64,000 bases of DNA from an uncultured Hyphomicrobiales bacterium (GTDB taxonomy: Bacteria > Bacteroidota > Ignavibacteria > Kapaibacteriales > UBA2268). The first letter of the stretch is position 1, and each line of letters begins with the position of its first letter. The notes beneath the pieces were generated by a model. The model did not search any database and was not told the origin of the DNA. It saw nothing but the letters and a program-made list of their open reading frames with translations. The DNA is taken from the NCBI GenBank assembly GCA_964645005.1, contig CAZXYS010000014.1:4644-68643 (forward strand), in the 5' to 3' direction. Shown here one piece after another: positions 32,901-59,218 of the stretch. The position numbers were made by a program, and so were the translations under genes.

Positions 32901-35783
32901 AAAATATTCTGCTGAACCATGACCAAGGAAATTAGCCCATACTACCCCATCATTTATGATCTTGCGGACTCTACCAGCGTCTTTTTGCCCGATATTGGCT
33001 TCTTCGCTTTTGCACACCGATTCCGTAATACCACAGATCTCAGGACCTTCTATGTATGGAATGAATAATTCCTTGTCTTTGCAGAAGCCTCTTATCTCAG
33101 CAGGACCGTATCCACCCGAAATAAAGAAAAATTTCTTATGCCAGGGGGATATTTTTGAGGTGTCGTATTGAATCAGCTTATCAACAAAGTTTTCCGCAGT
33201 GTCGCTATTCCTGGCAGGAATTCTTCCGACTATAAAGTTGTTAACCTGCTTATCGTTGGATAATCCGTACCATGTATCACTGGTTGGAAGACCAAAGGTT
33301 GGAACAAGATCTTCGTATTGGGAATTCTTCCAGTTTAATTTAGGATCCCAGCTCGCATCGCCAAACATTATAGCATGTGTCGGTGCTTGTTTCCAATTAT
33401 CAAGTGTATATCTCAGAAAATTCCTTATGGCGTGAGGAGATTTCTTGCCATAGTTAAATTCTTTGTAAATGTCATCAACATTTACAACTTCAATATCGAT
33501 ATCTTGAAAATCTTTTCTGTGTTTAGCAAGTCTTTGTGCCTGATTTAATAAATTTTCATGAGAAATTATCAAGCCGTCGGCAGCGTTATTAGTGTCAGTC
33601 AGGTTAGACGAATTGGTCTTTTTTATCACAGCTTCTTCAACGGTTTTAGAATCATTCATGAAGAATTTGTAAGATGTCTGCTCCTTTATTTTAAGTTCAG
33701 CTTTGTAAGAAATCCCGGCATTGTCCTGAACAAATTTGGAAATTGCTGTCATACCGCTGTTTAATTGATCTCCACTGACAGATGTGCCTTTGCGGAAATA
33801 AAATGCATAGACATCACCCGCAGAATGAGAAGAAGCCCTGTTTAAACCGGCTGCCTTTAATTTATTCAGAAGTCCCTGATGTCCTATAGAGTTCTCGCCG
33901 TTATATACTCCTGATATAAATGTATTGTCAGGCAGGGCATCTATCAATGAAGAAACGTCACCCGGATTTTCATAAGTTTGTACTTTGGGAGTCCCCGGTG
34001 ATTCTACGGGTAGATACATAATGTGAAATCCTCTTTTCTTAGAGATCATACCGGAATCATTGATAACGACAGTAGCTGTAGGTTTATCGCCTGCAATACC
34101 ACCCATGTGAACTGTTGTACCATTCGATGCTTGTAGAAATTTAATGGTTTTGTTTAAGCTGTCAATAGCTGCTATATCAGGGGATTTGAAGCCTGTTACC
34201 TCAATTGAAGAGTTTTCATCAAGATATCCCGGATCAAATATGATATTACCTTTGTATGCCACCGGCTTTGAATTACCTTCCACAGCGTAATAGTCTATAC
34301 CTGCTTTTTTGGTCTTGAATGTATCGGTTGCCATTAACCGCAAACCTACATAATTCAAACCCGGCAGGATTGAGTTTTTTGTAAACTTACCTGTAAACTT
34401 TTTTTCTCTTATAAGGTCGAATCTTTGGATGTCCGCAGTGTCATAATTAACAAGAAAACGCAGTTCATATGAAGGTATGTGCCATGTTCCGTCAATAAAA
34501 ATTGAGTCCAATAAAGTCGTGGCTGCGGTGCTGACATCTATTGATTCCGAAGGATCATCAGATGGAAATACAAAAACAGGCTGTTGAAATTCTTTATCAA
34601 AGCTCTGGTCTATTATTGTCTGGTACCAACCTTCCGGGAAAATATTTTCAGTCTTAAGTAAATATTTGCCAATATAATATATCTTGTCATATTCGATTCT
34701 TTGGTTTATCTTAACCGAGCTAACTTTCTCGACAGTATTTACAGGATCGACATGCGAACTCAACCTGATTCCCCCGGAATTTTGATCATAATACAAATAG
34801 AAAGGCTCATTTTCAGTGTAATGATCAAACCAAGTTGAATCTCCAGCAGCCCGCCTGCCTAGAAAGTAGATTTTCTCATTTCCATCTATGGTATTATTAT
34901 CATCTGATATGTAGCATGGATATTCTTCTCCTTTATAAATCAGATGTAAGTTACTGGTTTTTTTGTTGTTCCATTCAGGGGCGTGCTTCAGGATATCCGT
35001 GACGTCAATCCTGGCTGCTCCGTCGGTAGTAGTCATGACTTTAAGATATTTCCTGTTAGGATCATACCAATCCGGAGCTGATAATATCTCAGGTGTTGTC
35101 TCCCCCTTATTGATCTTAACTTTTGAGTTAGAAACAAGATATCTAAGATGTTTCTTATTTACCACTCCCGAGAATAGTGCCCTTTCACCATTTGAAAAAG
35201 CTGCATCGGACATCGCTGCTTCCTTACCAAAGTCAATATCGACGGTGGATTGATCTAATACAGCTAAATCTCCGGACAGAGGATCATATCTAAAGGGCTG
35301 TATCGTAATCAAATATTCAGGCACTCCGCGCTGCTCACCTAAGTATTCGTAACTTACTGATGGTTCAATTATTTCTTTTGTAATTTGAATATCACTTCCG
35401 TTAATGAACCTTTTTCGTATGGAATCTTGCAGTAGATTACTGTACAAAGGTAAGTTTTTCTTACCGAGTGATTTAATGTTAAACTCGTCAATTTTAGTAT
35501 TTAAATTTGCGTTATGAGGTACTGCAGCAATGAATTTAATTACAGGAATTGCATAACCCGAAAAATTAACAAAAGGATCAACATGATCAGCATTATTGAT
35601 TGTTAACAGCTCAGTTTGATCATGGGTTAAGTATGAGGAAGTGCCAATGTCAGTTTGATTTAATTTTACTCTTAAACCTTCCGGCTTCTCAATTATTTCA
35701 ATGTTTTTGGCAAATAACGTATTTATTGCAAAAAACATTACAAGTATGAATGCGAGTTGTCTCTTCATTTGTATTCCATTCAA
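29964..35783 (-). CDS. gingipain-like cysteine peptidase (MEROPS C25 family) with a T9SS C-terminal sorting domain, 1939 aa
   Basis: A signal peptide is present. The His/Cys catalytic pair is in C25 order and spacing: ANFLGHGSAEYF ... FIFSTLSCNSGEF (compare gingipain GHGS ... CVNGDF). The C-terminus NYPNPFEQNTTFNLTY...AVIRIYNPVGQHIRTL...YYYRINV matches the Por secretion tail. Confidence 0.75.
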   Translation of the reverse strand: MNGIQMKRQLAFILVMFFAINTLFAKNIEIIEKPEGLRVKLNQTDIGTSSYLTHDQTELLTINNADHVDPFVNFSGYAIPVIKFIAAVPHNANLNTKIDEFNIKSLGKKNLPLYSNLLQDSIRKRFINGSDIQITKEIIEPSVSYEYLGEQRGVPEYLITIQPFRYDPLSGDLAVLDQSTVDIDFGKEAAMSDAAFSNGERALFSGVVNKKHLRYLVSNSKVKINKGETTPEILSAPDWYDPNRKYLKVMTTTDGAARIDVTDILKHAPEWNNKKTSNLHLIYKGEEYPCYISDDNNTIDGNEKIYFLGRRAAGDSTWFDHYTENEPFYLYYDQNSGGIRLSSHVDPVNTVEKVSSVKINQRIEYDKIYYIGKYLLKTENIFPEGWYQTIIDQSFDKEFQQPVFVFPSDDPSESIDVSTAATTLLDSIFIDGTWHIPSYELRFLVNYDTADIQRFDLIREKKFTGKFTKNSILPGLNYVGLRLMATDTFKTKKAGIDYYAVEGNSKPVAYKGNIIFDPGYLDENSSIEVTGFKSPDIAAIDSLNKTIKFLQASNGTTVHMGGIAGDKPTATVVINDSGMISKKRGFHIMYLPVESPGTPKVQTYENPGDVSSLIDALPDNTFISGVYNGENSIGHQGLLNKLKAAGLNRASSHSAGDVYAFYFRKGTSVSGDQLNSGMTAISKFVQDNAGISYKAELKIKEQTSYKFFMNDSKTVEEAVIKKTNSSNLTDTNNAADGLIISHENLLNQAQRLAKHRKDFQDIDIEVVNVDDIYKEFNYGKKSPHAIRNFLRYTLDNWKQAPTHAIMFGDASWDPKLNWKNSQYEDLVPTFGLPTSDTWYGLSNDKQVNNFIVGRIPARNSDTAENFVDKLIQYDTSKISPWHKKFFFISGGYGPAEIRGFCKDKELFIPYIEGPEICGITESVCKSEEANIGQKDAGRVRKIINDGVVWANFLGHGSAEYFDLDGWQVQTLNNYGKYFIFSTLSCNSGEFANPKVYSRNESYLMAPEKGAIASMGATAVSSALIEKKIMYYMLQGMEQDAKRELGEIFFAGKASLSTKNDLELRALEHYLYLGDPYTRIKIDTVPDLYFLKGDFQLASEEGSSIITTENDSVTISGSIYNAGTSLPEPYIVRVIRIYNGKTDIYDFEINGTCYNENFSFKIPVKDMPGQHVIDVIIDPEKETNEIHRENNAVSATIDVFAPGVSVLDPMAFWDVNSSEPIFRVLNLFAEEGEFEYEMHLKTSSVDSANALISANTDDLDIDESFIQWKPDIELENGTSYWFFARLRNMNEQEFSTWLKVPFYASETGGSEIVHWSQNTAEELSSNKHNFNLTNENHGKYKIPDKQVDYYCLSSKGTPPSKRWANIEINSDVYVNTEYARGFSVVTISKNTGEGKIHGFDTWKDDSSSIKLVNFIRDSINNNHYVFIATCDRSFEVPISKRTPPSIGSIDTLKKVFREEFSTTLFDSVKKSSSYAMFSFKDAVPDEVVEAHDPEGRDAVIDGKVPIYDTAASVQTIRIGPAKEWKNFSIDGSTAPNLTELKGIVQGYNVSGSQKDLLLEFDEFGKVDLSRISAGNYPYIDIDITLNRGENIKEEPYISEIRSEFIPQPELAIPRSSIKISQTPVLRGLETEIGFAIRNISLRTTADQVKVNTEVSSEDVVIDQFDFSKSHLLPDERVEEKFIVNTKSYNPENDVNFQLSPDGTDMDIYKFNNSAKSILNVREDQEQPQIVVISGSQELYEGIYLPKNPLFEINIYDNSPLEIPNDNIRVKINGYYQNQDNTKEYNFIKEPDPQNPSYKLLLRLRPDSLDQTSEFTEHWIQVTAEDATGNKDTVLYRFNINRNYEITEYKNYPNPFEQNTTFNLTYKAPENAGTAVIRIYNPVGQHIRTLEKDLSLGENEIYWDGFDKKGRKVPVGAYYYRINVENVLYVEPVTGSLMINR

Positions 35784-35930: not shown

Positions 35931-35980
35931 AAAATATTAAAAAATAAAAAAGCCGTATTAGTAATGACACTAATACGGCT
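35931..35980 (-). terminator. rho-independent terminator for the 36005-37369 gene
   Basis: On the minus strand, agccgtattagt-gtcatt-actaatacggct is followed by ttttttatttttt. Confidence 0.75.
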
Positions 35981-36004: not shown

Positions 36005-37369
36005 TTATTGATTCTGCCTTCTTGTGTTATCGCCTTTTTTGACATCTTCTCTGACGCCGACCATGATCTTCTCGGCAATTTCCTGAGCTATTACCTTTCT
36101 GATGTTATCATCGCTGGTCATGTATTCAGAGATAGCATTTTCAACTCTGTTCCGGATAATTTCAGCAGTTTGACCAACCAGTGCATTTGCAAGCTGGTGA
36201 ATATCACTCTGCTGCCCTTTAAGAGTCTCAAGCTGGCTTCTGTTGGCGTCTTCCATCTTCTTGAGCATCTTATCCATACGTTCTTCTTCTTCGGTGTAGA
36301 ACATAGTCACCGCAAGCAGGGTAAGCATAGTAAACTCAAGGAAAATAGCGAGCAGAATGAAAGAAGGTTTTGCTGCCGGGATAAACTTCAGACCACGAAT
36401 ACCAACAGCCACGATAAGGAATGCCGCACCGCCGTATGCCATACCTGTTACATTATTGGCATAACGCTCTGTGAAGTGGTGCGCCATGTAAAGACGCAGC
36501 CCTTTTCCAAAATAAAGGTGATTTCTGCGCCACATTAAGCCATCCTTGGTATCCTGGATTTCTTTTACGACAAAGTCTGAAAAGAATTCCTTGATCCTGC
36601 CGTAAAGTATGTCATTTCTAAAGCGAACCAAATCTACACTTTCGTCAAACAGATCATCAAAATTGACGTGATGTTTGGCGGAAGCAAGCTCTTCAGTTTC
36701 AGTTCTGTCCCAAATATTGATGAATGAATTCTCGACTTCGAATACTTCTTTCTCTGCCAGTGTATCATCAGGCATAATAAGAAGCTCGACGATTTCATCT
36801 GAGAATCCCGTTTGTAGTCGAATTTTGGTTTTGGTTTCATCCACTTGTTTCTCAAAGAACACTGCCATTAGTCCAAGACTTGATGGAAACAGGCTGGTTA
36901 AGAAAACACATAAGAAAAGAGCAATGACCATGGATATCCACCAAAACCCAACCCAGGGTTGCAAGATAATCGGATGCTCTCCAAGGGTTGGTGACTTAGC
37001 GTACCAGTCAATGGATGATTTAACATATCCATGTTCATCTGATGTTCTTTCTTTGAATGTGAAATCAAAAACATAATCGGGATTGATCAAATCTTTTTTG
37101 ATTTCAAGGTTTTTTCCTTTTAACTTAGGCTCTTCTTCTTTTGGAACCGATGCCCAAGCTAATCCTTCAAATTCAACAAACCCGATTTTTTCCAATTGTT
37201 CCCCGCTGGGCATAAACAACGGAACAACAAATTGCGCAGATATAAAGGGTATTACTTTAAACTGAAAAAGAACAAAAAACGCTGCAAAAAGTACCACAAA
37301 AACCAGTATGTGCTGGGCTCCCATTTTATACTTTTTACTTGCTGATTGGGATAGAGATGTTGTTGCCAT
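36005..37369 (-). CDS. hypothetical polytopic membrane protein with a C-terminal coiled coil
   Basis: 454 aa with an N-terminal TM cluster, a second TM cluster, and a C-terminal heptad-rich segment (MLKKMEDANRSQLETLKGQQSDIHQLANALVGQ). Confidence 0.5.
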   Translation of the reverse strand: MATTSLSQSASKKYKMGAQHILVFVVLFAAFFVLFQFKVIPFISAQFVVPLFMPSGEQLEKIGFVEFEGLAWASVPKEEEPKLKGKNLEIKKDLINPDYVFDFTFKERTSDEHGYVKSSIDWYAKSPTLGEHPIILQPWVGFWWISMVIALFLCVFLTSLFPSSLGLMAVFFEKQVDETKTKIRLQTGFSDEIVELLIMPDDTLAEKEVFEVENSFINIWDRTETEELASAKHHVNFDDLFDESVDLVRFRNDILYGRIKEFFSDFVVKEIQDTKDGLMWRRNHLYFGKGLRLYMAHHFTERYANNVTGMAYGGAAFLIVAVGIRGLKFIPAAKPSFILLAIFLEFTMLTLLAVTMFYTEEEERMDKMLKKMEDANRSQLETLKGQQSDIHQLANALVGQTAEIIRNRVENAISEYMTSDDNIRKVIAQEIAEKIMVGVREDVKKGDNTRRQNQ

Positions 37370-37603: not shown

Positions 37604-39457
37604 TTATTTTATATACAGTTTGAAGTTCTTGGGATTATACCATTTTTCCAACAGTTCAACAAATTCTTTGTAATTAGGAGGTTTAATAAAGTCACCGCTA
37701 ATACTAAGACTCCCTTTTATCGTAAAATATTGTACGTCTTCAATCACTGAAATATTAACTTTACCGGCTTCATTGGAAAAATCAATGTTTCCTATGTTAT
37801 GAACAATACTGCTGTTTTCGGGTATCTTGATCTTAAAGTGATATGATTCATTGACATTCCTATGTAATTTGACCGGTGTCTTTCTATCTGACTTAATTGC
37901 CGGAAAATCGAGAGTGTTGAAATCACCGGGATTAAAAGGGATGCTGACTTCCTTAAGATTTCCGGTATTTTGTGGCGGATTTTGGTCATTAATTTTAAAT
38001 TTCGCAGCGAAAGGAGCAAAATCTCCCGCTATGAAGTCGGGATTTTGAAGTTCCGCATCATAAGAATGTTTTGAGAAAGTGCTTTTGACTAATTTTTCAT
38101 TTTCCGATCTCTTTAATCCAGCCTGATAATGCCCGCCAATTTTCACTATACCATTGCCGGAAAATTTGCCTGTAGAGTCAATTTCCAGATTACATGATAA
38201 CTCAAAAATTCCCTTTTGAGCTTTTATCTTGTCTGTTTGCTTCCGAATTTCCGGCTCCCAAGGAGCAAAAAATTTCTTCCCATATAAATATTCAGGTGTA
38301 AAGCTGCTCTGATGTTTGTTTGGATCGAGATACACCTTCTTACCACCTTTTTCGCTGGGCGAGGCTATAACAATGGGATTTTCCAATTCCCCAAGAAACA
38401 ACTTATCATCCGGCATTGAAGCATCTTGCGAGAAAATTGCAGGATAAGCGCCAATATCCAGCGCTTTAAGCATTGCTGCAAATAGAATAGCCCTGTCGAG
38501 ATGATTCCCGACATTTCTGTCGAAGGCTTCCTGCGCCGGCATGGGTGTGCAGCCGGTTTTTAGCGGATCGCAGTTTCCCGTGCCTACATTATTATGGATA
38601 TGATCATAGATTTTGATGATCTTATCCATAGCCGTAAGTTCGTCGGTGGTGAGTTCTTTCACCGATTCTACCGCTTTGTCGTTAAGTGCGAATATATCTT
38701 CTGACTTACTTTTTATATGATCGATTATTTCGTTCTTTTTGGCAGATGAAAAATACAGTGCAGGGACAAATTTCTCGAAATCCGGCTGCTGCGTTTCCTG
38801 TGCCACAAGAGGAACATTTTTAAATTGCCATGTATAAACGTGGAAGCCCTCTTCATTTGTTTTGACCGGGGATTGTGAGCTATTTGCGAGATGGTGCTCA
38901 AAATATTGTCCGTTTGGCACTTTCACGATTACATTAAATTCTCTAACGGGGCTGCGCTTGCCTAAGACCACCTTCCCCTGCAAGCCTGGCAGAAAGTCCT
39001 TCTCTGATGTCAGGGTATAAGCAAATTCCACCGTGCAGCCAAACTCGAGCCCGGTATGTGTGACTACCATTTCCCTTAGATTCATCTCTGGAACATTATC
39101 GGACGCACATCTCGGCAGCACCTCGTTGAATGCATTTTCCGGCGAATGAACAATCTCGCCGGTGGTCATCTTAGTTGCCGACCGTTGGATTTCCAGTTCC
39201 TGATAGTCGGGATTGTAAACAATGAAAGATTCGCCCGACTTTCGATTAAGCGCATAGCTCGTAAGCACTTTTAATTCATGGGAATAGGTGAATTCAGTCG
39301 TGCCGTCCGGCTTCAACACGTAAACATGCGTTATCTTCTTATAGACTTCGTCGGCATTCTCTTCGGAATAACCGGCAGCATGTAAATTGCCGGCTAATAT
39401 TAATGCTAATAAGATTGTAAAAAAATTAGATTTCGATTTGTTCATTGATAATTCCAT
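37604..39457 (-). CDS. secreted transglutaminase-like-fold protein, predicted catalytically inactive (DUF3858-like)
   Basis: Signal peptide present. In the core motif VGNHLDRAILFAAMLKALDIGAYPAIF, His sits where transglutaminase-like enzymes carry the Cys. It is the last gene of an apparent three-gene operon. Confidence 0.55.
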   Translation of the reverse strand: MELSMNKSKSNFFTILLALILAGNLHAAGYSEENADEVYKKITHVYVLKPDGTTEFTYSHELKVLTSYALNRKSGESFIVYNPDYQELEIQRSATKMTTGEIVHSPENAFNEVLPRCASDNVPEMNLREMVVTHTGLEFGCTVEFAYTLTSEKDFLPGLQGKVVLGKRSPVREFNVIVKVPNGQYFEHHLANSSQSPVKTNEEGFHVYTWQFKNVPLVAQETQQPDFEKFVPALYFSSAKKNEIIDHIKSKSEDIFALNDKAVESVKELTTDELTAMDKIIKIYDHIHNNVGTGNCDPLKTGCTPMPAQEAFDRNVGNHLDRAILFAAMLKALDIGAYPAIFSQDASMPDDKLFLGELENPIVIASPSEKGGKKVYLDPNKHQSSFTPEYLYGKKFFAPWEPEIRKQTDKIKAQKGIFELSCNLEIDSTGKFSGNGIVKIGGHYQAGLKRSENEKLVKSTFSKHSYDAELQNPDFIAGDFAPFAAKFKINDQNPPQNTGNLKEVSIPFNPGDFNTLDFPAIKSDRKTPVKLHRNVNESYHFKIKIPENSSIVHNIGNIDFSNEAGKVNISVIEDVQYFTIKGSLSISGDFIKPPNYKEFVELLEKWYNPKNFKLYIK

Positions 39458-39462
39458 TATTG

Positions 39463-40689
39463 TTAATTCATCTTTTTCATTGGTAAAGTAAAGTAAAATG
39501 TAGTGCCTTTATTCTCTTCGCTTTCAACCCAGATCGAGCCTCCGTTTTTCTCAACGAATTCTTTGCAAAGGATCAATCCAAGCCCGGTTCCCTTTTCTTC
39601 TTTCGTTCCGGGTCTCGAGGATTGCTCTTCAATTTTGAACAGCTTATTTTTAATACTCTCATTCATGCCCATACCGCTGTCGTTTACGGACATAATGATC
39701 TTCTCATGGTTCTTCTCAGCTCGAATAGTGATATTATCATCTTTTCCACAGAATTTTATACTATTCGAAACAAGATTCCGTAAAACCGTGGCAATCATAT
39801 TTCTATCTGCGTAAGCCTGAATTTTTTCATCTATTTCATTTTTTACTATTACACCCTTAGAATTCGCAAAGTTTTTTAAAGTATAAGTGATTTGATTTGC
39901 CACTTCATTAAGATCAAGATCTTCAGGGTTGAAATCCACTTTTCCAAGCTGAGATCGTGCCCATCCCAATAAATTGGTTAGCAAATTATATGTTTGTCGG
40001 GAAGATTCGTTAATCATACTGATAAGTTCTTTTCTATCTTCTTCGGAAATTTCGTCGGATGCTTCTAATAGCTCTTTCGAAGCATTCAAAAGCACATTGA
40101 ACGGATTACGCAGATCATGCGCTATTATGGAAAAGAACTTATCTTTCCTCGTGTTCAGCTCTTTGTATTTTTCTTTCGATTCTTTTAGCGCAATTTCAGC
40201 TCTTTTTTTCTCGTCTATATCGAAAACTATTCCGGCAAGCTTCAGCGGATTACCGTTCTCATCTCTCTTAGTAACTATTCCCCGATCATAATACCATTTC
40301 CAGTTACCATCTTTCGTGCGGATTCGGTATTCTGTTTCGTAGGCGGGTTTTCTCATTTCGAGGTGGTCGCGCATATTCTGCATGGTATTTTCATAGTCAT
40401 CCGGATGAAGCATTTCCGTAAAACCCCAGACATCAGGATCGATTTCGCCCTCTTTATATCCAAGAGTTTCAATTTTTCTTTTGTTATAAATAACTTTGCC
40501 GGTGGGAACATCCCATTCCCAGCGCCCCAGATTACCTGCCCAGGCTAAATTGATGTCATCGTCTCTTAAAGAGAACTCTTCTTCCTGTCTTTTCTGCTCG
40601 AATTCAAGCACCTCGAGCTCTTTGATACGATTTTTCAGCCGCTCGTTTTCTTCGATAAGTTCTTGTTTGGTTCTTTTATCATCAGCCAT
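39463..40689 (-). CDS. cytoplasmic sensor histidine kinase (coiled-coil – PAS – HisKA – HATPase)
   Basis: No TM segment. PAS features (EWDVPTGKVIYNKRKIETLGY), H-box FSIIAHDLRNPFN, and the ATP lid GTGLGLILCKEFVEKNGGSIWVES are present. Confidence 0.9.
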   Translation of the reverse strand: MADDKRTKQELIEENERLKNRIKELEVLEFEQKRQEEEFSLRDDDINLAWAGNLGRWEWDVPTGKVIYNKRKIETLGYKEGEIDPDVWGFTEMLHPDDYENTMQNMRDHLEMRKPAYETEYRIRTKDGNWKWYYDRGIVTKRDENGNPLKLAGIVFDIDEKKRAEIALKESKEKYKELNTRKDKFFSIIAHDLRNPFNVLLNASKELLEASDEISEEDRKELISMINESSRQTYNLLTNLLGWARSQLGKVDFNPEDLDLNEVANQITYTLKNFANSKGVIVKNEIDEKIQAYADRNMIATVLRNLVSNSIKFCGKDDNITIRAEKNHEKIIMSVNDSGMGMNESIKNKLFKIEEQSSRPGTKEEKGTGLGLILCKEFVEKNGGSIWVESEENKGTTFYFTLPMKKMN

Positions 40690-40700
40690 AGTGAAAATCC

Positions 40701-42779
40701 TTACCTTTTTAATATAACCGGTTTATCAGAAAGTTTTTTCCTCTGCACAAGCGCCGCTTTGAATTTATCCCAATCTTCCGGCTTATATATTCTTTTTTCC
40801 ATTCTGTGTTCGACGGAAAATTTAAGATTATTTCCTTCAATCTTATATTCAGACTCAAAGCTCGCCGGATCGCCTTTTTCATAAGAACCTTCGATAACTT
40901 CGAATTCAGGAACTTTATCAGCATTTTGGTAATCCGGCAATTTCATTGTCTCATTTATCTTCACCAGTTTTGAGCATCTGATGCGAAAGCCGTATTCTCT
41001 TTCTTGCAAGTTAGTGTCAATCTCTAATTCATATCCGAAAAAATAATCGTCAAACGGATTCTCGGCAGTGATCGGTTTGAACATTAGCTTATCTTCTGTC
41101 ACAAAAGCGTAGTCGGGTATTCTAAAGCTTAGTTCAATATTGAACGGCTCGCTGATGTCGGACGGATCGGTATGCGTCAAACTTGTGATTTCAGCCTTAG
41201 GTGATATATCTGCGAATAACTGCGGGAAATATTCATCGCGCGAACTCTTGAAGCTGCGCAGGAATGCCCTTCTTATCAGGGCGCCGGTCTGACCTTCGGC
41301 TTCGATGGTTATTTTTCCTTTGAGCGTGCCATCCTTTTTGAGTTCAGTATCAGCACTGATATTGAGATAATGATTTTCCGCAGGTGATACCGGTGTCGTC
41401 ATCAAATCGGCGCCGCCGGGAATACCCATAAGCAATTGCTGCTGCTGTTCGGCGCTGGACCATAGTTCTCTAACGCCGGGCACCCAGGTCGGATCGAGCA
41501 ATATCCAGTCACCATCAGATAGTTTAGCTAAAGTCACACTGTGATTGAACTGATCGGCGGGAATTCTGTCTATCCGCGAGCCAGCCATAGTCATCGCCGG
41601 ATAGGACTCGAAACCGGCTGCGCGAAGCATTGTCACCAGCATACCGGCTTTGTCCTTGCATACACCGCAGCGGTCAGTGAAAGTCATTTTACCTGTGTGC
41701 AGGGTATATCCTTCGCCTTCGCCCATCGACAAGCCGGAATAGCGAATATTTTCCGCCACCCAGTGAGTCAATATCTTGATTTTTTCCATTTCGTCATCAA
41801 CGCCTTTCAGCAGTTCATCAGTCTTTTCCTGAACATCCTGTGTAACTTCGAAACTGCCGAAATCCTCGTTCACATTATGAAACCAGACCGCTTTGGCGTA
41901 CCAGTCCGGGGATGTGGACATGAGCAGCTTCGGCGCTACGTTTGATGCATTTACCATATTCGGCTCGCTGCTGAAAGGCTGCATATCCTTCTTGTACCAG
42001 CAATATTCGGTCTTGCCCGAGCGGTTAATTTCTTCTTTATGAGCGATTTTCGCAGTGCCGTAAGTTTTCTTATGCGGATTTACCTGAAGTGTAATATCTT
42101 TGTCTTTTTCTTGGTGGAAACGTATGTACGAAGTCAATTCCCCATTATAAACTTCGTATTGCAGCGGTTTATCCTTCGGCATGAAAATCCTGTAAACTTT
42201 TTCTTCAACAGGTGCCGATGAACGAAAATGAACTATATCGTAATAATGCCCCTTCATCGGCGGAACGAAGCGCTGTTCTTCGCCTTCGCTGTCGCCGAGA
42301 AGCGCGTAAGTGAAACCTTTGCGGTGGATGACAGTCTCGATGGCATCGCCCGGCTCGAGCCGCCCGAATTCCAACGTTTTATTTCTCATGCCCCAGTAAA
42401 TCATGCGCGCAGGGGCTGTATAATCGAGAATGCTCGAGGTATCTGTTTTTTCTACAGAACCATCCTTTCTGTAGATCTTTGCCGAGATTATATCTATCGC
42501 GGCGGATTGCGGATCGTAGTTATAGTGGCGATGCCTGTATTGTTTGGCGCCTTTCCACGTGAGAATTTTCGTCAATTTATGCATTTCCACGCGGCTAAGC
42601 CCGGATTCCTTGACATCCACTTCTGTGCTGTCGTACAGCACGACTACATCTGCATTGGGATATTCTTTCGTTTTTTCGATCAGTTCTCTATTTGGGTCTT
42701 TATTCTGCGAAAAACTTGTATAACAAAACAACAATATTAATATTATTGCCAGAGGAAAGTTCAATTTTAATGCGCTCAT
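40701..42779 (-). CDS. secreted transglutaminase-like cysteine protease superfamily protein (DUF3857-like N-terminus + TGase core)
   Basis: Signal peptide present. The core motif is DRCGVCKDKAGMLVTMLRAAGFESYPAM (the G-x-C...A...LR..G..A pattern of the transglutaminase-like core). Confidence 0.7.
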   Translation of the reverse strand: MSALKLNFPLAIILILLFCYTSFSQNKDPNRELIEKTKEYPNADVVVLYDSTEVDVKESGLSRVEMHKLTKILTWKGAKQYRHRHYNYDPQSAAIDIISAKIYRKDGSVEKTDTSSILDYTAPARMIYWGMRNKTLEFGRLEPGDAIETVIHRKGFTYALLGDSEGEEQRFVPPMKGHYYDIVHFRSSAPVEEKVYRIFMPKDKPLQYEVYNGELTSYIRFHQEKDKDITLQVNPHKKTYGTAKIAHKEEINRSGKTEYCWYKKDMQPFSSEPNMVNASNVAPKLLMSTSPDWYAKAVWFHNVNEDFGSFEVTQDVQEKTDELLKGVDDEMEKIKILTHWVAENIRYSGLSMGEGEGYTLHTGKMTFTDRCGVCKDKAGMLVTMLRAAGFESYPAMTMAGSRIDRIPADQFNHSVTLAKLSDGDWILLDPTWVPGVRELWSSAEQQQQLLMGIPGGADLMTTPVSPAENHYLNISADTELKKDGTLKGKITIEAEGQTGALIRRAFLRSFKSSRDEYFPQLFADISPKAEITSLTHTDPSDISEPFNIELSFRIPDYAFVTEDKLMFKPITAENPFDDYFFGYELEIDTNLQEREYGFRIRCSKLVKINETMKLPDYQNADKVPEFEVIEGSYEKGDPASFESEYKIEGNNLKFSVEHRMEKRIYKPEDWDKFKAALVQRKKLSDKPVILKR

Positions 42780-43151
42780 AAATATCGTTCCGGTATTCTT
42801 AGTAAAGCTATTTTAATTATAATTTTTACAATTTAATTAAAAATAATTTAATTTAAAAAAACAGACATATAAAAAACACTTATTTATCATCATTGATTTC
42901 AAATTTATTGATTTATGACTTATTAAAAAAACTAGTATTTTAAATTTTTAATTTGAAAAAAAACAAATTTTGTTCGTAGTTTATTATTATGAAAAATAAT
43001 TAATCTATCTTTAAAAATTTAGATTTACAAAAAAAAGACTTGATATTTTAGCAAAATTATTTTATATTTTCAACTAATTTCCTTTTCGGCATTACCTCAA
43101 AAATTTGAACTTAAAAACAAATTTTTATTAACAACTTTTCGGGAAAATATT

Positions 43152-46100
43152 ATGTTAACAAATGATACCTCTCACAGCAGTAGATTGCATACTACACTGT
43201 TGACAATTGTATTAATGTTCTTTGCTTTCAGCCAAAATGCATTGTCGCAGGACGCAGCCTACACCGGAAATCCGCGCCCTTTTCATCAGGGATATGTTAA
43301 CCACCCGGTAACAGTTGAAGCCGGAATTGCAAATTTAGAAAACATACCCGTCCGGAATATTAGAATACACTTTCGAATTATTTACATTGATGGGGATCAG
43401 GTTGTTTTCGAACATCGGGATACGCTGGAATCCCTTGATGGTAATTCTTCCGTTAGAATTAAAGCGCCGGAAAGATGGGCGCCGCAAAATGAAGGGCAAT
43501 ATCTTGCTCAATTCTATTTTGAGGCGGATAATGATCAGGAACCGGCTAATAACGCTGTAAACAATGAATTGAGAATCACAGAATGGCCCATGCCATTTGA
43601 TTTGACAATAGAGCAAATAAATTTCACCAGACCATTCGAACAGTTTAACTCAAATATCGGCTTTTTCACATTTACTTATGAGCCGTCTGATAATGTTCAA
43701 TTCGTAAATATCATGGCTGCTCTTCCAAACAGCTCAGAGCCGCCTGTTTGGATTGTTAAGAATTTCCCGATAAGTCCATTCCAATCAAAGCAGACAGTCT
43801 CTGTCTGGGCGGATTTTAAGCCACTGCAAATTGAAAATGGCACCGACATCCATGATTTGATGATTGATTACCAGGTAACCGACGAGATCATCACCGAAGG
43901 ATTCACGATGGATAACGACTATCCTTTGGAAGTCGAGGATGTAGAATACAATGTGGACAGCGATATAACAGAAGTAATCCCGTCCGAAATTCCCACTGAC
44001 ATTCCCGAAATAATGTGGGATCCCGGGGAAATTTACTGGGATTATCGCGGATGCGAAGTTCCTAACATCGATCTGGATTCTTCCGAACATAATCCAGACG
44101 ATGAGCCGGGCTATGAAGGCGACTGGAACGCATGCGGTCCTGCAAGTACCGCAAACAGTATGCAATGGCTCGAGGATAACAACGATAATATTCCCAGCTC
44201 CGGCACAACACACCGCGAAAAAATGAAAGAAATGAGCGGAATGATGGAGCGCGGCAATGAAGACGGCGTCACCACTAACCAGATGCTAAAAGGAAAGCTC
44301 GGCTATATTGACAAGCATAAGCTGCCTATAAAAGTCAAATTCCAGAGTTATTTCGAAAGGGCTGATTCAGTGGAATCACCAAATGATAAATACGGGCATT
44401 CGGCTGAAAACCAGAGTGAATCAACCGGCGCCCCGCCAACTTTCGAATGGATTAAAGAAGAGATGGCAAACGGCGAAGATGTTGAGATAATGTTCGGCTG
44501 GTACGACCGCTCTGGCAACAGACACGGCGGACACTGGGTTGTTCTGACTGGCGTCAGTCAGGTTGGCAATAATACTAAAGGTCTGTACTTCAAAGATGAC
44601 CTGCATCAAGACAGAGAAGGCGGCACGCGCCAGCAATATGTCAACTGGGTCGAAGGCGATGACGGATGGTCGCGCCTTGTCGGTTTGGAAGGACCCAACA
44701 ACTACTGCTGGGTGGAAAGCGCCATTTCCGAAAGCTATGATCCGACAGTAACTCACGATATACAGGATATTCAAATCAATCAGTTGAATTACGACTCATT
44801 CTTCGATGTGTTCACATCTCTCAAATCCCACTTCAAATTCGATTTTGTTCCTGAAGATTATCCGCGATATCTGAATGTATTTGCAAATGATGTTGACGGC
44901 GATAGAGAATGGATACTGCGGAATATTCTGCTGCCGCCATTCGAAGTGAGAAGTGAACTCGCCGTTTGGTGGGATATGAGCGTTCTCGGATACGAAGAAG
45001 GCGACGAGATAGATGAACTTGAAATAGGATTCAAAGTAGATACTGATTATATCAACGAGGAAACTTCTCAAACTTACACTGTCGGCAATTGGCAGCCTAT
45101 ACCCGTCAATGATGTTGAATACAATAAAAAATTGAACACAGTTGAGCAAGACGACGAAAAGCTTGATATAGACATCGAAGTGACATACCTTAGAGATTTC
45201 GAACTCGGCGAAGATATAAAATGGCATTACCGCGGGTGCGAGGTTCCGAACATCGATCTTGACTCTGCCCGAAACAATCCGAATACCGATACAAGCTATG
45301 CCGGTGATGCAAACGCCTGCGGGCCTGCCGGCGCAGCCAACAGCCTTCACTGGCTCGAGACCACGCATCCCAAGCTCAGTGAGAACACCACTCACAGAGA
45401 AAAGCTGAAAGAACTAAGCGATATGATGGATCGCGAGGATAATGGGGGCGTATTCAGAAGAAATTTCATAGAAGCAAAGCTTGAATATATCGATAAATAC
45501 AAGCTTCCAATAAAAGTCAAATTCCGGAGCTGGAAGTTCGGCACCGATTCAATACCTTCACCTGATGATAAATACGGTCATTCGGCAGACAATCAGAATG
45601 ATTCGGCAAATTCATTCCCAAGTTTTGACTGGATGATGAACGAAATGAGAAACGGTGAAGACGTTGAGCTTGAGCTGGGCTATTATGATTCCACAGGCAG
45701 CCGCGGCGGCGGACACTGGGTCACGATCACCGGCGCCAGCGATGTCGGCACTGCACAGGGGTTTTATTTCAAAGATGATATAGATCAATCGGACAGCGGC
45801 GGAACTGAACAGGAATACTGCAACTGGGAAACTTATGAAGGTATGCCATACCTGCCACAACTCTCAACTAAAGACGAAGTTGCGGTTGTCGAGACTGTCG
45901 TTTCCGAAAGCTATGACGCAACTGTATCTCATGATATTAAGGATGTTAAGATTGAGAAGATCAATTACGACATCGGACCCTCGATGTTCGAAGATCAACC
46001 GGGCAAAGGATTGATCACGTTTAAATTCATTCCCGAAGAGGACGATCTTCGCTATGTAAATATGAAGGCGAAAACCAAAAATGACGAAGAATTCTGGGTT

Positions 46101-48638
46101 TGCAGGAATGTATTGCTGCCGCCATTCCAGGATACGAGTGATCTGTCAGTCTGGTTTGATTACGGCTGGCTGGAATATGATCGCGGCGAAATTGATGAAC
46201 TCAGTTTCCTCGACCTGGCTTACAAGATCACTGAAATACCTCTGGCAGAGAGTGAACTTAACTTCAAGGATTATAGAGAAATAGAAGTTTTCGAACTCAA
46301 TTACAATAAGAAATTGAACACTCTTGACGAAGATATAACAAAGTTAGATTTAGCTGAACCCGAACTTAAACCTATAACACCGTTTAAAGAAGTTACCTGG
46401 CATTACAGAGGCTGCGAGGTTCCGAACATCGATCTTGACTCGTCGAAGAATAATCCTTCTACTGTTACGGGTTACGCAGGCGACAGAAATGCCTGCGGAC
46501 CGGCGGCGGCGGCAAACAGCCTGCAATGGCTTGATGATGAGGACGACAACATCGATGATGACAACTCGCACCGTGACAAGCTCAAAGAACTGAGCAAAAT
46601 GATGAAACGCGAGGATAACGGCGGTGTTTACAGGAAGGACTTCATTGAAGCCAAGCTTGAATATATCGACAAGCATAAACTGCCGATCAAGGTCAAATTC
46701 CAGGGATGGAAATTCGGCGCTGACGACGTCGACTCGCCAAATTCCAAATACGGACATAAGGCTCATAATGAGAATGATTCGGCAAAAATGCCTCCCAAAT
46801 GGGATTGGATCATTAGTGAAATGAAGAATGACGAAGACGTCGAACTCGAATTCGGCTACTACGATTCAACCGGTACCCGCCGCGGCGGTCACTGGGTAAC
46901 CGTTACCGGCGTCAGCGATAATGGCAATTACAGAGGAATATATATCAAGGATGACGGCGATCAATTGGATTCCGGCGGAACCCGCCAGCAGTACGTAAAT
47001 CTGGATACTGCTCACGGATATACTTATCTCAAGCAGATTTCATCGAGCAAATATACGTGCTATGTAGAAACGGTGGTCTCCGAAAGCTATGATTCCACTA
47101 TGACATTCGAGGAACCGGAAGACCCCGTCAATATAGAAATTGTGGAATTGAATCTCAGAGGTCGAGGTGACTTTCATATAGATTCTTTCTTCGATATCTA
47201 CACAGAGATCACATTGCCGGATTCCAACGGCAAAGATAAAGATAAATTCCTGAATATGTTTGCAAGATCGCCGGGAAGTGACAGCTTCACGAGGCTCTTC
47301 CCGCTGAAGTTCCCGGCATCTAAGAAGGATACAAACGATCCTGTGCTTGAAGAACGCTTTACTTTCAAACCTATTCGCGTTGAAGGATCAACTAAGAAAA
47401 ACAAAGACGAAATACTCTCATCTCATCAGTTAGAAATTGCTTATGTCCTGGCGGACAGCCTGCTGTCCGACGATTACGAGCCTGCTGACTGGGAAACCTA
47501 CACGGCTGCCGGCAGCAATACCATAACACTGCCGAATGATGCGCTCAGCGATGAATCATACAATCTCAACCGCGTTCAGCCAAGACGGATAAGACTCGAC
47601 GCTTCGGCCTCTCAATTCTCTATGAGGCATGATAAGCCGTCTCTTGATCCGGATAATACTCAGTATAATCCGAGCACGGTTGACGGCTACGCAGGCGATA
47701 TGAACGCCGGCGGTCCCGCCGCAGCCGCTAACGGCATGGGTTGGCTCGAAATGACCCATGACGCGGTAGACACCGAGCACAGCGACAGGATCAAAATGTA
47801 CAGATATAGCAATTATGCTGGCAGAGAAGATGAACTGGGCGTTTACACCAACGACATGATCAAATCGCTGCTCAGCTTCATAGATAATAACAAAGTACCG
47901 GTAGGAGTGGAATTCCGGAGCTTCAAGCTCGGTACGGATAATATAGCCTCACCTGTCGAGCTTTACGGGCATGAAGCGAAGAACATGAATGATGCACCGG
48001 ACGACGGTCCTGATTGGAACTGGGTCAAAGAGAAGCTCGACAACGGTTACGACTTAATGCTCGAATACGGCATCTACGACTCTACCGGTCAGAGAATCGC
48101 CGGTCATTGGGTAAATGTCACAGGCTACGCAGATTACGAGACGGCTCAGGCTATCTACTTCAACTATGATCTCGACCAGCAGAATGAAAGCGATGACAGA
48201 GATTTCGTATCCGAATGGCGCACCGATCAGGACCACGCTTACCTGATGCAGTTCACTTCGGATAATCTTGTTTGCTGGGTCGAGAGTGTTATAGCTAGCA
48301 AGTATGATGAGACTGTTGAATTTGAACCGGGAGATGTTCAGGAACTGCTTAACAGCAAAGATAAACTAAATCTTTCGGTTTACAGGAATCCGAGCGCTGT
48401 CACGGAAGAGATAAACATAAACTTCATTCTTCCTGAGGCAGAGTTTGTCTCGATCGATTTGTACGACCTGAACGGCAGACTGATACACCACATCTACGAC
48501 GGCTACAAGAATTCCGGCGAAGCCACCATTAAATGGGACGGCAGAAATTCGAAGGGCGCCAGAGTATCCAACGGCGCCTATCTGATAATAGTGACAGCCA
48601 ACGATTATCAGTCAGCAGTGAAGATCATACGCGAATAA
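43152..48638 (+). CDS. 1828-aa T9SS-cargo protein with four tandem ~395-aa modules, each carrying a papain-fold-like Cys…His domain (fourth module Cys→Gly); novel architecture
   Basis: Signal peptide present. The motif YRGCEVPNIDLDS..NP....GYAGD.NACGPAAAANSLQWLE ... GGHWVTVTG.SD recurs four times at ~1185-bp spacing (Cys sites at ~44128, 45318, 46494, 47709). The C-terminus LSVYRNPSAVTEEININFILPEAEFVSIDLYDLNGRLI...GAYLIIVTANDYQSAVKIIRE is T9SS-tail-like. Confidence 0.8.
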   Translation: MLTNDTSHSSRLHTTLLTIVLMFFAFSQNALSQDAAYTGNPRPFHQGYVNHPVTVEAGIANLENIPVRNIRIHFRIIYIDGDQVVFEHRDTLESLDGNSSVRIKAPERWAPQNEGQYLAQFYFEADNDQEPANNAVNNELRITEWPMPFDLTIEQINFTRPFEQFNSNIGFFTFTYEPSDNVQFVNIMAALPNSSEPPVWIVKNFPISPFQSKQTVSVWADFKPLQIENGTDIHDLMIDYQVTDEIITEGFTMDNDYPLEVEDVEYNVDSDITEVIPSEIPTDIPEIMWDPGEIYWDYRGCEVPNIDLDSSEHNPDDEPGYEGDWNACGPASTANSMQWLEDNNDNIPSSGTTHREKMKEMSGMMERGNEDGVTTNQMLKGKLGYIDKHKLPIKVKFQSYFERADSVESPNDKYGHSAENQSESTGAPPTFEWIKEEMANGEDVEIMFGWYDRSGNRHGGHWVVLTGVSQVGNNTKGLYFKDDLHQDREGGTRQQYVNWVEGDDGWSRLVGLEGPNNYCWVESAISESYDPTVTHDIQDIQINQLNYDSFFDVFTSLKSHFKFDFVPEDYPRYLNVFANDVDGDREWILRNILLPPFEVRSELAVWWDMSVLGYEEGDEIDELEIGFKVDTDYINEETSQTYTVGNWQPIPVNDVEYNKKLNTVEQDDEKLDIDIEVTYLRDFELGEDIKWHYRGCEVPNIDLDSARNNPNTDTSYAGDANACGPAGAANSLHWLETTHPKLSENTTHREKLKELSDMMDREDNGGVFRRNFIEAKLEYIDKYKLPIKVKFRSWKFGTDSIPSPDDKYGHSADNQNDSANSFPSFDWMMNEMRNGEDVELELGYYDSTGSRGGGHWVTITGASDVGTAQGFYFKDDIDQSDSGGTEQEYCNWETYEGMPYLPQLSTKDEVAVVETVVSESYDATVSHDIKDVKIEKINYDIGPSMFEDQPGKGLITFKFIPEEDDLRYVNMKAKTKNDEEFWVCRNVLLPPFQDTSDLSVWFDYGWLEYDRGEIDELSFLDLAYKITEIPLAESELNFKDYREIEVFELNYNKKLNTLDEDITKLDLAEPELKPITPFKEVTWHYRGCEVPNIDLDSSKNNPSTVTGYAGDRNACGPAAAANSLQWLDDEDDNIDDDNSHRDKLKELSKMMKREDNGGVYRKDFIEAKLEYIDKHKLPIKVKFQGWKFGADDVDSPNSKYGHKAHNENDSAKMPPKWDWIISEMKNDEDVELEFGYYDSTGTRRGGHWVTVTGVSDNGNYRGIYIKDDGDQLDSGGTRQQYVNLDTAHGYTYLKQISSSKYTCYVETVVSESYDSTMTFEEPEDPVNIEIVELNLRGRGDFHIDSFFDIYTEITLPDSNGKDKDKFLNMFARSPGSDSFTRLFPLKFPASKKDTNDPVLEERFTFKPIRVEGSTKKNKDEILSSHQLEIAYVLADSLLSDDYEPADWETYTAAGSNTITLPNDALSDESYNLNRVQPRRIRLDASASQFSMRHDKPSLDPDNTQYNPSTVDGYAGDMNAGGPAAAANGMGWLEMTHDAVDTEHSDRIKMYRYSNYAGREDELGVYTNDMIKSLLSFIDNNKVPVGVEFRSFKLGTDNIASPVELYGHEAKNMNDAPDDGPDWNWVKEKLDNGYDLMLEYGIYDSTGQRIAGHWVNVTGYADYETAQAIYFNYDLDQQNESDDRDFVSEWRTDQDHAYLMQFTSDNLVCWVESVIASKYDETVEFEPGDVQELLNSKDKLNLSVYRNPSAVTEEININFILPEAEFVSIDLYDLNGRLIHHIYDGYKNSGEATIKWDGRNSKGARVSNGAYLIIVTANDYQSAVKIIRE

Positions 48639-56726: not shown

Positions 56727-58736
56727 ATGAAAAATCAGAAAAATTTGAAATACAAACAGAAAAGCATTTCGGAAAAAGTATCAGGCAAATTTCCGAAAAA
56801 TTCAAAGTACTTTGAAGAAGCTTTGAAAGCAAGTGAAAGAAAGTATAGTGATCTTTTCAATAGTATTCGGGATGCTATTCTCGTTGCCGATACGGACAGA
56901 AATATTGTTGACTGTAACCCTGCCTTTGAACAATTTTTTGGCTATTCGCTGGAAGAGATTAAAGGGAAAAAGACCAGATTTGTTTATGAAAATGATGAAG
57001 ATTTCAAAAACATGGGTGAATACTTAAAAAATCATTTTGGAGACCCGAATTTTTTCTATACGGTTAACTACCAAAAAAAATCCGGTGAAGTATTCCCCGG
57101 AGAAACCAATGTTTTCTATTTATTTGATGAAAAAGATAATATTTGCGGTTTCATAGGTCTCATAAGAGATGTTTCCGAAAGGAAAAAAGCCGAGGAAGAA
57201 AAAGACAAATTAATCCACGGCATGGGCGAAAGAATAAAAGAACTGAACTGCATATATAACGCAGCCAATACTATCAACAACAGTGATTCCATTGATGAGA
57301 TTTTACGGAAAACGGCTGATTCCATTCCTCCCGGCTGGCATTATCCTGAGATTACCCGTGGTAAAGTAATTTTTGACGGAAAAGAATATGTCTCGGAACC
57401 GTTTAGTGAAACCCAATGGAAACAGCAGTCTGATATTATTATCAATGGTGTCAAAAGGGGCAGCGTTGAAGTTTATTATCTCGAGGAAAAACCGGAATTA
57501 GATGAAGGCCCTTTCGTGAAAGAAGAAAGAGATCTTATCAACAATCTCTCGCAAAAAGTCAGTTGGGCAATTGAGAGAATAGAAACTGTCGAACAACTTA
57601 TAGAAAGTGAAACAAAGCTGCGGCAATCTCAACTTATAGCCGGGATCGGGAACTTTACCTGGGATATAAAAACAGGAGAAGTTAAATGGTCCGAAGGATT
57701 GCACAAATTACTTAAATATGATCCGGAGGAAGAAATTGACTATGACAGGGTTAATAGGTATATCTGCCATCCTGAAGATTTAGGAGAATTAACCCAGTGG
57801 CTTAATGACGCTATTAATTCAGGCAAAAAAAAGCTTCCGCCGAATGATTATCGACTTGTTTGCAAGGACGGGGAAGTTAAAGAAGTACACGCCGAAGGAA
57901 TCATTGAATATGAAAATGACAAACCAGTGAAAGTTTTCGGTACTTTACTCGATATTACCGAACGGAAAAAAAATGAAATCGAACTCCGCGAATTAAATAA
58001 CGAACTCGAAAAAAGAGTACGAGAGCGCACCATCAAACTGGAAAACTCCAACAAAGAACTCGAAGCCTTCGCCTATTCCGTATCCCACGACCTGCGGGCG
58101 CCTCTGCGTCATATCGGCGGTTTCGCCAATTTACTGGAGAAAAAGTTAGCGGATAAATTAGACGAAAAAGAAAAACACTACATGGATACTATCAATGAAT
58201 CCGCGAACAAAATGAGCGAACTGATCGATCATCTTCTCGCCTTTTCACGGATGAGCAGAAGTAAACTGAACAAAATAAATATTGATACAAACAGACTTGT
58301 AAATGACATTGTCCGGGAGTTAGAGCCGGAAATCAGCAACAGAAATATCAATTGGAATATAGACCGGCTGCCCGAAGTTTATACGGATAAAATGCTGCTC
58401 TGGCAGGTGTTTTATAATTTGATATCAAACGCCGTTAAATTTACTGCAGACAGAAATCCCGCCGAGATTTCCATTGGCTGCGAAGAAAATAAAGACAAAT
58501 TTGTATTCCATATCAGCGATAATGGTATAGGATTTGATATGCAATATGCAGAGAAGTTATTTGGCGTTTTCCAGCGCCTGCATAGCGATGAAGATTACGA
58601 AGGCACGGGCATCGGACTTGCCAATGTCAGGCGGATTATCCACCGCCATGGCGGCAGGACATGGGCTGTAGGCGAAGTTGACAGGGGAGCGGCTTTTTAT
58701 TTTTCAATACCAAAGGCGGAGGATAATAATGGATGA
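56727..58736 (+). CDS. multi-PAS sensor histidine kinase (cytoplasmic)
   Basis: It has PAS domains, the H-box AYSVSHDLRAPLRHIGGFANLL, an N-box and G-boxes (GTGIGLANVRRI). Confidence 0.9.
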   Translation: MKNQKNLKYKQKSISEKVSGKFPKNSKYFEEALKASERKYSDLFNSIRDAILVADTDRNIVDCNPAFEQFFGYSLEEIKGKKTRFVYENDEDFKNMGEYLKNHFGDPNFFYTVNYQKKSGEVFPGETNVFYLFDEKDNICGFIGLIRDVSERKKAEEEKDKLIHGMGERIKELNCIYNAANTINNSDSIDEILRKTADSIPPGWHYPEITRGKVIFDGKEYVSEPFSETQWKQQSDIIINGVKRGSVEVYYLEEKPELDEGPFVKEERDLINNLSQKVSWAIERIETVEQLIESETKLRQSQLIAGIGNFTWDIKTGEVKWSEGLHKLLKYDPEEEIDYDRVNRYICHPEDLGELTQWLNDAINSGKKKLPPNDYRLVCKDGEVKEVHAEGIIEYENDKPVKVFGTLLDITERKKNEIELRELNNELEKRVRERTIKLENSNKELEAFAYSVSHDLRAPLRHIGGFANLLEKKLADKLDEKEKHYMDTINESANKMSELIDHLLAFSRMSRSKLNKINIDTNRLVNDIVRELEPEISNRNINWNIDRLPEVYTDKMLLWQVFYNLISNAVKFTADRNPAEISIGCEENKDKFVFHISDNGIGFDMQYAEKLFGVFQRLHSDEDYEGTGIGLANVRRIIHRHGGRTWAVGEVDRGAAFYFSIPKAEDNNG

Positions 58737-59178: not shown

Positions 59179-59218
59179 TTGAAATTATAAATTTTGAAAT
59201 TACACATTTTGATTTAAT

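Follow-up and report, generated by a model that had tools for sequence, protein, structure and literature searches.

Why should the gene for a soluble histidine kinase lie between the genes for two exported transglutaminase-like proteins, only a few nucleotides from each, and does this arrangement have a regulatory meaning? The question is raised by a stretch of 64,000 nucleotides, here called the window in its full length, from an uncultured bacterium filed as Hyphomicrobiales and placed by GTDB in the Kapaibacteriales, UBA2268 (assembly GCA_964645005.1, contig CAZXYS010000014.1, positions 4,644 to 68,643). An earlier description made without database searches, which we call the sequence-only reading, had seen in these genes an apparent operon of unusual composition, and had proposed either coupled regulation of an enzyme pair or a kinase that senses the product of that pair. 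Comparison with related loci indicates that the trio is a real, lineage-restricted three-gene variant of a widespread two-gene cassette. The outer genes and their products are called TGA and TGB below, and loci used for comparison are denoted by L and a number. The trio is laid out as follows:

40701-42779, minus strand: TGA, 692 amino acids (aa), with DUF3857, a transglutaminase-like (papain-fold) core and an N-terminal hydrophobic segment.
40690-40700, minus strand: spacer between TGA and the kinase gene, 11 nt, with an AAGGA Shine-Dalgarno-like motif, read from the sequence, that overlaps the TGA stop codon (TAAGGATTTTCACTATG).
39463-40689, minus strand: histidine kinase, 408 aa, predicted coiled coil followed by PAS_3, HisKA and HATPase_c, soluble.
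37604-39457, minus strand: TGB, 617 aa, with DUF3857, a degenerate transglutaminase-like core and DUF3858.

The three minus-strand open reading frames (ORFs) agree exactly with the coordinates first reported for them, as do the spacers of 11 nt between TGA and the kinase gene and 5 nt between the kinase gene and TGB. On public copies of the contig, gene callers place the start of TGB four codons later, at its second ATG (39445), which gives a protein of 613 aa and a spacer of 17 nt. The AAGGA motif stands 8 nt ahead of the ATG of the kinase gene. Since identical copies of the trio are present on independent public contigs, the arrangement is not an assembly artefact. Rfam and tandem-repeat scans found nothing in or around the three genes.

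The sequence-only reading had proposed a search of related genomes for conservation of the gene order, and had named a lack of synteny in all of them as a refutation; the search was successful, so that this refutation fails. The full order TGA-kinase-TGB, with spacers of 13 and 30 nt, is present in L083, L084 and L085, which represent one lineage recovered in three sequencing runs; relative to the window, TGA of this lineage is 63-65% identical, the kinase (412 aa, coiled coil-PAS_3) 54% and TGB 33%. In L088, a TGA that is 63% identical is followed, after a 13-nt spacer, by the first 36 residues of a homologous kinase, at which point the contig ends and no TGB is seen. A search of 5.8 billion proteins returns the kinases of the window and L084 as each other's best hits; the two pair in 63% of bootstraps, and in the TGA tree the window (WIN), L083 and L088 stand next to one another as leaves. 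Around the trio, each lineage has different flanking genes. On these sequence comparisons the embedded kinase is rare, yet it is conserved in a small clade comprising this organism and at least two metagenomic lineages.

The outer pair has a far wider distribution. Among 8000 candidates scored, 4360 are TGA homologues at E<=1e-10, and identities of 47-65% are found across metagenome-assembled genomes (MAGs) labelled Bacteroidales, Marinilabiliales, Ignavibacteria, Melioribacteraceae and Kapabacteriales, and also Calditrichaceae, KSB1 and Marinimicrobia. TGB comes immediately after TGA in 76 of the 78 species-representative genome loci in which both genes are present, with spacers typically of 10-30 nt, in L091, L092 and L093, and in 72 of the 73 metagenome loci whose sequence extends far enough for a decision; the median spacer is about 20 nt across more than 150 pairs. 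The earlier impression of an unusual combination thus holds for the inserted kinase, which is rare, but not for the outer pair, a ubiquitous two-gene cassette that occurs almost everywhere without a kinase. The cassette is also carried by MAG contigs labelled Hyphomicrobiales, Chromatiales, Ectothiorhodospiraceae or Phycisphaerales (L002, L005, L007, L010, L013, L021 and L043); these labels are probably binning or labelling errors. As to functional hints from conserved flanks, the recurrent neighbours were only housekeeping genes, for a pseudouridine synthase, a primase, NadA and RpiB, kept only within Bacteroidales.

TGA has the features of the catalytic member of the pair. It matches DUF3857 (PF12969) at 1.5e-32 (113 bits, cut-off 24.6) and Transglut_core (PF01841) at 5e-11 (43.3 bits, cut-off 23), and its triad of Cys374, His413 and Asp429 is intact and invariant in 87/87 homologues. 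There is no Pfam match of TGA to DUF3858 (PF12970), though its AlphaFold2 model (pLDDT 79) aligns over the whole chain with PDB entry 3KD4 (target-normalised TM-score 0.74), the sole whole-chain match in the PDB (Foldseek E=8e-29). Beyond 3KD4, the fold search with this model returned only partial beta-sandwich matches, to the N-domain of M1 aminopeptidases and an oligosaccharyltransferase (OST) subunit, and no functional lead. Two loops that flank the catalytic Cys and His, residues 348-359 and 398-411, contain invariant residues (SGLSMGEGEGYTLH; MAGSRIDRIPADQFNH) and have a pLDDT below 50 in the model. Conserved and apparently flexible, they could form a lid or a substrate-binding element. 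From its sequence, TGA is presumed to be the catalytic subunit of the pair.

TGB matches DUF3857 at 3.9e-29 (102 bits, cut-off 24.6) and DUF3858 at 4e-15 (56 bits, cut-off 27), while its match to Transglut_core is below threshold (21.8 bits, cut-off 23). In a pairwise alignment with TGA, where identity is only about 20%, the positions of Cys374, His413 and Asp429 are occupied in TGB by His319, an Asn and an Asp. TGB is thus predicted to be catalytically dead, since His319 stands in place of the catalytic Cys and the catalytic His is lost. Among the homologues of TGB the Cys position is never Cys (77/77), holding Pro, Lys, Gln, Glu, Ser, Ala or others instead, and the position equivalent to Asp is mostly Ser. 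Because the triad of TGA is invariant in 87/87 and the Cys of TGB is absent in 77/77, the pairing of an active-type with a dead-type protein is, on sequence grounds, the norm of the family and not a peculiarity of the window. The sequence-only reading was therefore right to call the third product inactive, and this trait is shared by the whole family.

The sequence of TGB also matches 3KD4 (E=4e-42), which like TGB is itself of the dead type and has Gly-Thr-Pro where the Cys would be. This entry is BDI_1141 of Parabacteroides distasonis, a structural-genomics structure described as a 'putative protease', and is the only solved relative; the DUF3857/transglutaminase-like/DUF3858 family to which it belongs (PF12969, PF01841, PF12970) has an overall architecture that both TGA and TGB appear to share, while the window differs from the family in having a kinase gene between the active-type and dead-type genes. 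Both TGA and TGB have an N-terminal hydrophobic, signal-like segment, and hydrophobic N-termini are present in 158/165 TGA and 137/143 TGB homologues, with a lipobox-like Cys in some of the latter. The signal peptides and transglutaminase-like cores originally attributed to the two outer proteins are accordingly seen by Pfam and at the N-termini, the core of TGB below the Pfam threshold. Proteins with DUF3857 and DUF3858 have been detected in outer-membrane-vesicle proteomes of Tannerella forsythia (PMC10682907). A literature search on DUF3857, DUF3858, 3KD4 and the Pfam accessions returned incidental mentions only, no functional study of the family and no report of protease, amidase or transglutaminase activity for any member, and nothing was found that describes the pairing of an active-type with a dead-type gene.

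The middle gene encodes the kind of protein that had been predicted, a soluble kinase with the order coiled coil-PAS-HisKA-HATPase. Pfam places PAS_3 at residues 69-155 (7e-21) and finds HisKA (PF00512; 8e-9, 35.9 bits, cut-off 26.9), with the H-box IIAH(191)DLRNP, and HATPase_c (PF02518; 8e-25, 88 bits), with the ATP-binding motifs NLVSNSIKF (N box, 305), DSGMGM (G1, 337) and GTGLGL (G2, 367). Residues ~1-45 are heptad-rich and charged and are read as a coiled coil, and there is no hydrophobic or transmembrane segment, the highest 19-residue Kyte-Doolittle mean being 0.68. The neighbours of the kinase gene are TGA and TGB, hence the canonical adjacency of kinase and response regulator is absent, as had been noted. 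From 10.4 kb to 58.6 kb the window encodes no receiver domain; the nearest lie at 9716-10387 (NarL-type), 58678-59178 (single receiver) and 59219-62974 (hybrid kinase), all at least 16 kb off.

This kinase belongs to a large family, with 7948 matches at E<1e-20 in the search described above. Its nearest paralogues stand in unrelated contexts, beside genes for YfhO, YbeY and DedA/AhpC. One of them, P0123, is the kinase closest to the window kinase in its sensor half, 60-64% identical over the coiled coil and PAS, and its gene overlaps by 4 bp with one that encodes a membrane protein of the YfhO family, an envelope glycosylation-type protein (L175, 622-5198). The genome of the window holds other orphan PAS kinases, e.g. 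at 56727-58736. The region 56727-62974 on the plus strand encodes a soluble multi-PAS kinase of 669 aa, the single-domain receiver (58678-59178) and a hybrid kinase of 1251 aa with two receivers; it is possible that the products of this cluster are the phosphorelay partners of the orphan kinase.

Signalling genes have been joined to the cassette in other clades also. In L089/L090, from a contig labelled Kapabacteriales UBA2268, TGA is 61% identical to that of the window, and the order in L089 is TGA, a 334-aa kinase, a 114-aa STAS protein and TGB, with spacers of 1, 10 and -4 nt (slot 12072-13431). This second kinase consists of coiled coil-HisKA-HATPase and has no PAS domain. Orthology of the two kinases, which would imply one insertion followed by PAS loss, was considered and rejected, as the L089 kinase ranks 125/126 for the window kinase and forms an exclusive clade with it in 0/100 bootstraps. 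In L089 a gene for an extracytoplasmic function (ECF) sigma factor follows TGB at a distance of 845 bp, and the combination of kinase, STAS protein (anti-sigma-antagonist-like) and ECF sigma factor resembles a partner-switching system.

When the flank ORFs of about 167 loci were clustered to find recurrent neighbours, the commonest tight same-strand 5' neighbour of TGA was a protein of about 280 aa that combines a receiver with a PAS-like domain, at gaps of -19 to 64 nt (e.g. L047 9009-9854, L135 5143-5985 and about 20 other loci). It is confined to one Bacteroidales/Prolixibacteraceae clade, where it occurs in 23/25 leaves. These regulators have diverged to 44% identity while keeping the acidic pocket, Thr and Lys of the receiver, and their output domain is PAS, with no DNA-binding output. 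In L058/L059 a TPR-His_kinase-HATPase gene follows TGB. In L154 (469-8225), a gene for a dCache-GAF-PAS sensor protein without a kinase domain lies 5' of TGA-TGB and a gene for a 449-aa HisKA-HATPase kinase lies 3', on one strand and with gaps of 205 and 175 nt, so that it looks as if sensor and transmitter are separated by the cassette.

The reading that we favour, and to which as a whole we would give slightly better than an even chance, is that the trio is a clade-specific cassette variant in which the kinase is co-expressed with the enzyme pair and functionally coupled to it. The ancestral unit would be the two-gene cassette TGA-TGB of the FCB (Fibrobacteres-Chlorobi-Bacteroidetes) group, in which TGA is a predicted Sec-exported cysteine enzyme of papain fold and TGB, encoded directly downstream, a fast-evolving dead paralogue. 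The two would most likely be made together and cooperate in the periplasm or at the outer membrane, where TGB would be the non-catalytic partner. In the ancestor of the small clade, the gene for the soluble coiled coil-PAS_3 kinase would have become fixed in the junction between them, and one transcript from upstream of TGA would cover all three genes. The kinase would stay in the cytoplasm, sense a cue through its PAS domain and phosphorylate an unlinked response regulator. With its gene in the operon, its dosage would be tied to that of the envelope enzyme pair, and the form of coupling that we prefer is a loop of feedback or co-regulation that would link the envelope module to a cytoplasmic phosphorelay. 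We prefer functional coupling because other clades have independently attached a receiver-PAS regulator, another kinase with a STAS protein, or a TPR-LytS-type kinase to the same cassette.

The chief alternative is that the kinase is a passenger, inserted by chance in a permissive site, co-transcribed and functional, and signalling for something unrelated to TGA and TGB. It would have been kept since its removal by rearrangement would risk breaking the TGA-TGB linkage. Several observations weigh against functional coupling, and many of them speak for such a passenger. No kinase lies between TGA and TGB in about 150 other cassette loci. The closest paralogues of the kinase serve beside the YfhO, YbeY and DedA/AhpC genes already mentioned, and P0123 comes from the same MAG as L005, whose TGA-TGB pair lacks a kinase; orphan PAS kinases are also found elsewhere in the genome of the window itself. 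The junction seems to tolerate passengers, as in L044 it holds an unrelated gene of 336 aa (4304-5314), which by eye we take to resemble that of a RhuM-family protein. In L004 the same junction holds a 603-bp non-coding insert (2744-3346) with a terminator-like hairpin and GC-rich palindromes (CCCCCTTTATTAAGGGGG); a search of this spacer for a kinase remnant gave nothing credible by tblastn at E<=10. No partner response regulator for the trio kinase was found, and the receiver-PAS regulator of the Bacteroidales has no homologue in the window.

The statistical link between the cassette and signalling genes is likewise borderline. Receiver and kinase-core hidden Markov models were built and every flank ORF was scored with them; with gene clusters counted as independent units, two-component genes make up 3/42 of the tight operonic neighbours and 10/589 of the other flank clusters, an odds ratio of 4.5 with p=0.049 in a one-sided Fisher test. 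This enrichment in tight linkage is suggestive, post hoc and borderline, and by gene rank signalling genes are no richer at ±1 than at ±2 to ±8, so that no excess of signalling neighbours is seen by that measure. The coupled regulation proposed at the outset therefore has no more than circumstantial support from the other clades that attach a regulator or kinase, but the enrichment that might have strengthened it stays at p≈0.05.

A chance insertion is, on the other hand, harder to reconcile with the tight arrangement of the trio, which has been kept in three lineages despite kinase and TGB identities as low as 54% and 33% and with zero shared flanking genes. Nor would it readily account for the non-orthologous kinase and STAS protein in the same slot of L089, for the response regulator fused to the operon in a clade of 23 members, or for the fact that histidine kinases are two of the three gene kinds ever seen between TGA and TGB. 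We regard functional coupling as plausible, with roughly even odds when it is set directly against a passenger gene; the passenger explanation in its full form, including its retention through linkage, we consider a real possibility, though an unlikely one. A bolder extension of functional coupling would make TGA and TGB the periplasmic arm of a signalling module of the FCB group, hitherto undescribed, that runs from envelope to cytoplasm and is wired to cytoplasmic two-component or partner-switching proteins; we hold this to be doubtful.

Both functional coupling and a co-transcribed passenger presuppose that the three genes are expressed as one unit, and here the sequence around the trio has to be considered. 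The relevant features are as follows:

42780-43151, minus strand: putative promoter region, 372 bp, AT-rich, divergent intergenic, upstream of TGA.
36005-37369, minus strand: membrane protein gene, 454 aa, multi-pass, no family assignment.
35951-35980, minus strand: terminator-like hairpin, strong, with a stem of 13 bp and a T run after it.

A single transcript from upstream of TGA is inferred because the spacers are of 11 and 5-17 nt, no internal terminator is present and TGB needs to be expressed. A hairpin scan of the minus strand found no terminator-like hairpin within the three genes; the first one 3' of TGB is that at 35980-35951, apart from a weak 5-pair match at 36961-36949 that falls inside the membrane-protein gene, and it is likely to be the transcript end. 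The best sigma-70-like match on the minus strand, TTGAAA-17-TAAAAT with an extended TG (43073-43045), falls in the 372-bp region 5' of TGA. Promoter-like matches in the region number 23, with 20.1±5 in shuffled sequence, i.e. they are not above expectation, and 43073-43045 is put forward only as a putative candidate for the operon promoter. From the geometry of the genes and the need to express TGB, the three are likely to be co-transcribed, and of the operon first described it is thus the tiny spacers and the missing internal terminator that are seen directly, while co-transcription itself is a deduction.

That the trio is not one operon, its genes having separate internal promoters and their arrangement no regulatory meaning, we regard as improbable. 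A promoter-like match at 40013-39985, within the kinase gene, means that TGB could have a promoter of its own; this, and the derivation of the single transcript from sequence, count against the reading that we favour. Further promoter-like hexamers occur within TGB. FCB-group promoters are poorly modelled by the promoter scan, and the terminator-like hairpin 3' of TGA in L004 indicates that the pair can be uncoupled. However, the spacers are too short for intergenic promoters, the trio contains no terminator-like hairpin, the promoter-like matches stay at the shuffled level (23 vs 20.1), and the median spacer of about 20 nt in more than 150 TGA-TGB pairs is typical of co-transcription.

The membrane-protein gene follows TGB on the same strand at a distance of 234 bp, with AAGGAG as its ribosome-binding site. 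Its product has a C-terminal coiled-coil-like tail and no significant match to a Pfam or NCBIfam family, a match to DUF6377 being below threshold. We rejected it as part of the conserved unit, as it has zero homologues in about 170 related loci; it is possibly a lineage-specific fourth gene of the transcript.

Least probable of all, and very unlikely in our judgement, is the proposal of the sequence-only reading that the kinase senses the product of its neighbours, for which no support was found: a small envelope-derived product released by TGA and TGB would have to be imported and bound by PAS_3, and while a cytoplasmic PAS sensor co-encoded with periplasmic enzymes and the recurrence of PAS-containing signalling proteins in these operons are circumstantial points in its favour, the conserved unit encodes no transporter, the PAS domain of the window kinase has only a generic motif in common with that of the Bacteroidales regulator (E=0.016), and the L089 kinase occupies the same slot without a PAS domain.

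The trio can be set beside several known kinds of system. Enzyme-pseudoenzyme paralogue pairs encoded side by side are a general principle, and the cassette appears to be of this type, as TGA with its invariant triad adjoins a rapidly diverging TGB that seems to have kept the fold and lost the catalytic residues. Orphan soluble PAS-HisKA-HATPase kinases of Bacteroidota and relatives share with the window kinase the domain order, intact boxes, the absence of an adjacent regulator and the many paralogues, but the gene for the window kinase is enclosed by two genes for exported proteins, neither more than 17 nt away, whereas its close paralogues stand alone or beside unrelated genes. In classical two-component operons the kinase is likewise co-encoded with probable target or partner genes, and in the Bacteroidales clade a receiver protein is found instead; unlike in those operons, no locus seen has both kinase and regulator in the operon.

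The surroundings of the trio are rich in exported cysteine-peptidase-like proteins. Divergent from TGA, at 43152-48638 on the plus strand, is a gene for a secreted protein of 1828 aa with a type IX secretion C-terminal domain. Within this protein a unit of about 430 aa is repeated four times, each time with the motif set '...RGCEVPNIDLD...GD.NACGPA...GGHWV' and a faint Peptidase_C39_2 (papain-like) signal. The fourth repeat has NAGGPA, the Cys being lost, and this may be another active/dead arrangement, within one chain. Just 3' of the operon terminator, at 29964-35783 on the minus strand, a gene encodes a gingipain-like Peptidase_C25 protein of 1939 aa, also with a type IX secretion C-terminal domain.

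If the kinase is a passenger insertion only, the trio would be a case of ordinary operon drift. If, in contrast, the doubtful signalling-module reading is true, the clades would expose its wiring by fusing different parts into the operon, namely the PAS kinase here, a kinase and STAS protein in the Kapabacteriales lineage, a receiver-PAS regulator in the Bacteroidales clade and a TPR-LytS-type kinase in others. TGA-TGB is among the better-conserved function-unassigned gene pairs in Bacteroidota, Ignavibacteria/Kapabacteria, Calditrichota, KSB1 and Marinimicrobia, and TGA has long invariant blocks across these phyla. The rule of an active enzyme with a dead paralogue, together with the signalling genes joined to the pair in several clades, should make the cassette easier to study, as a kinase or regulator embedded in the operon would offer a route to the inducing condition and the regulon. 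The main value of the locus is that it draws attention to a very widespread envelope module and may provide a regulatory handle on it.

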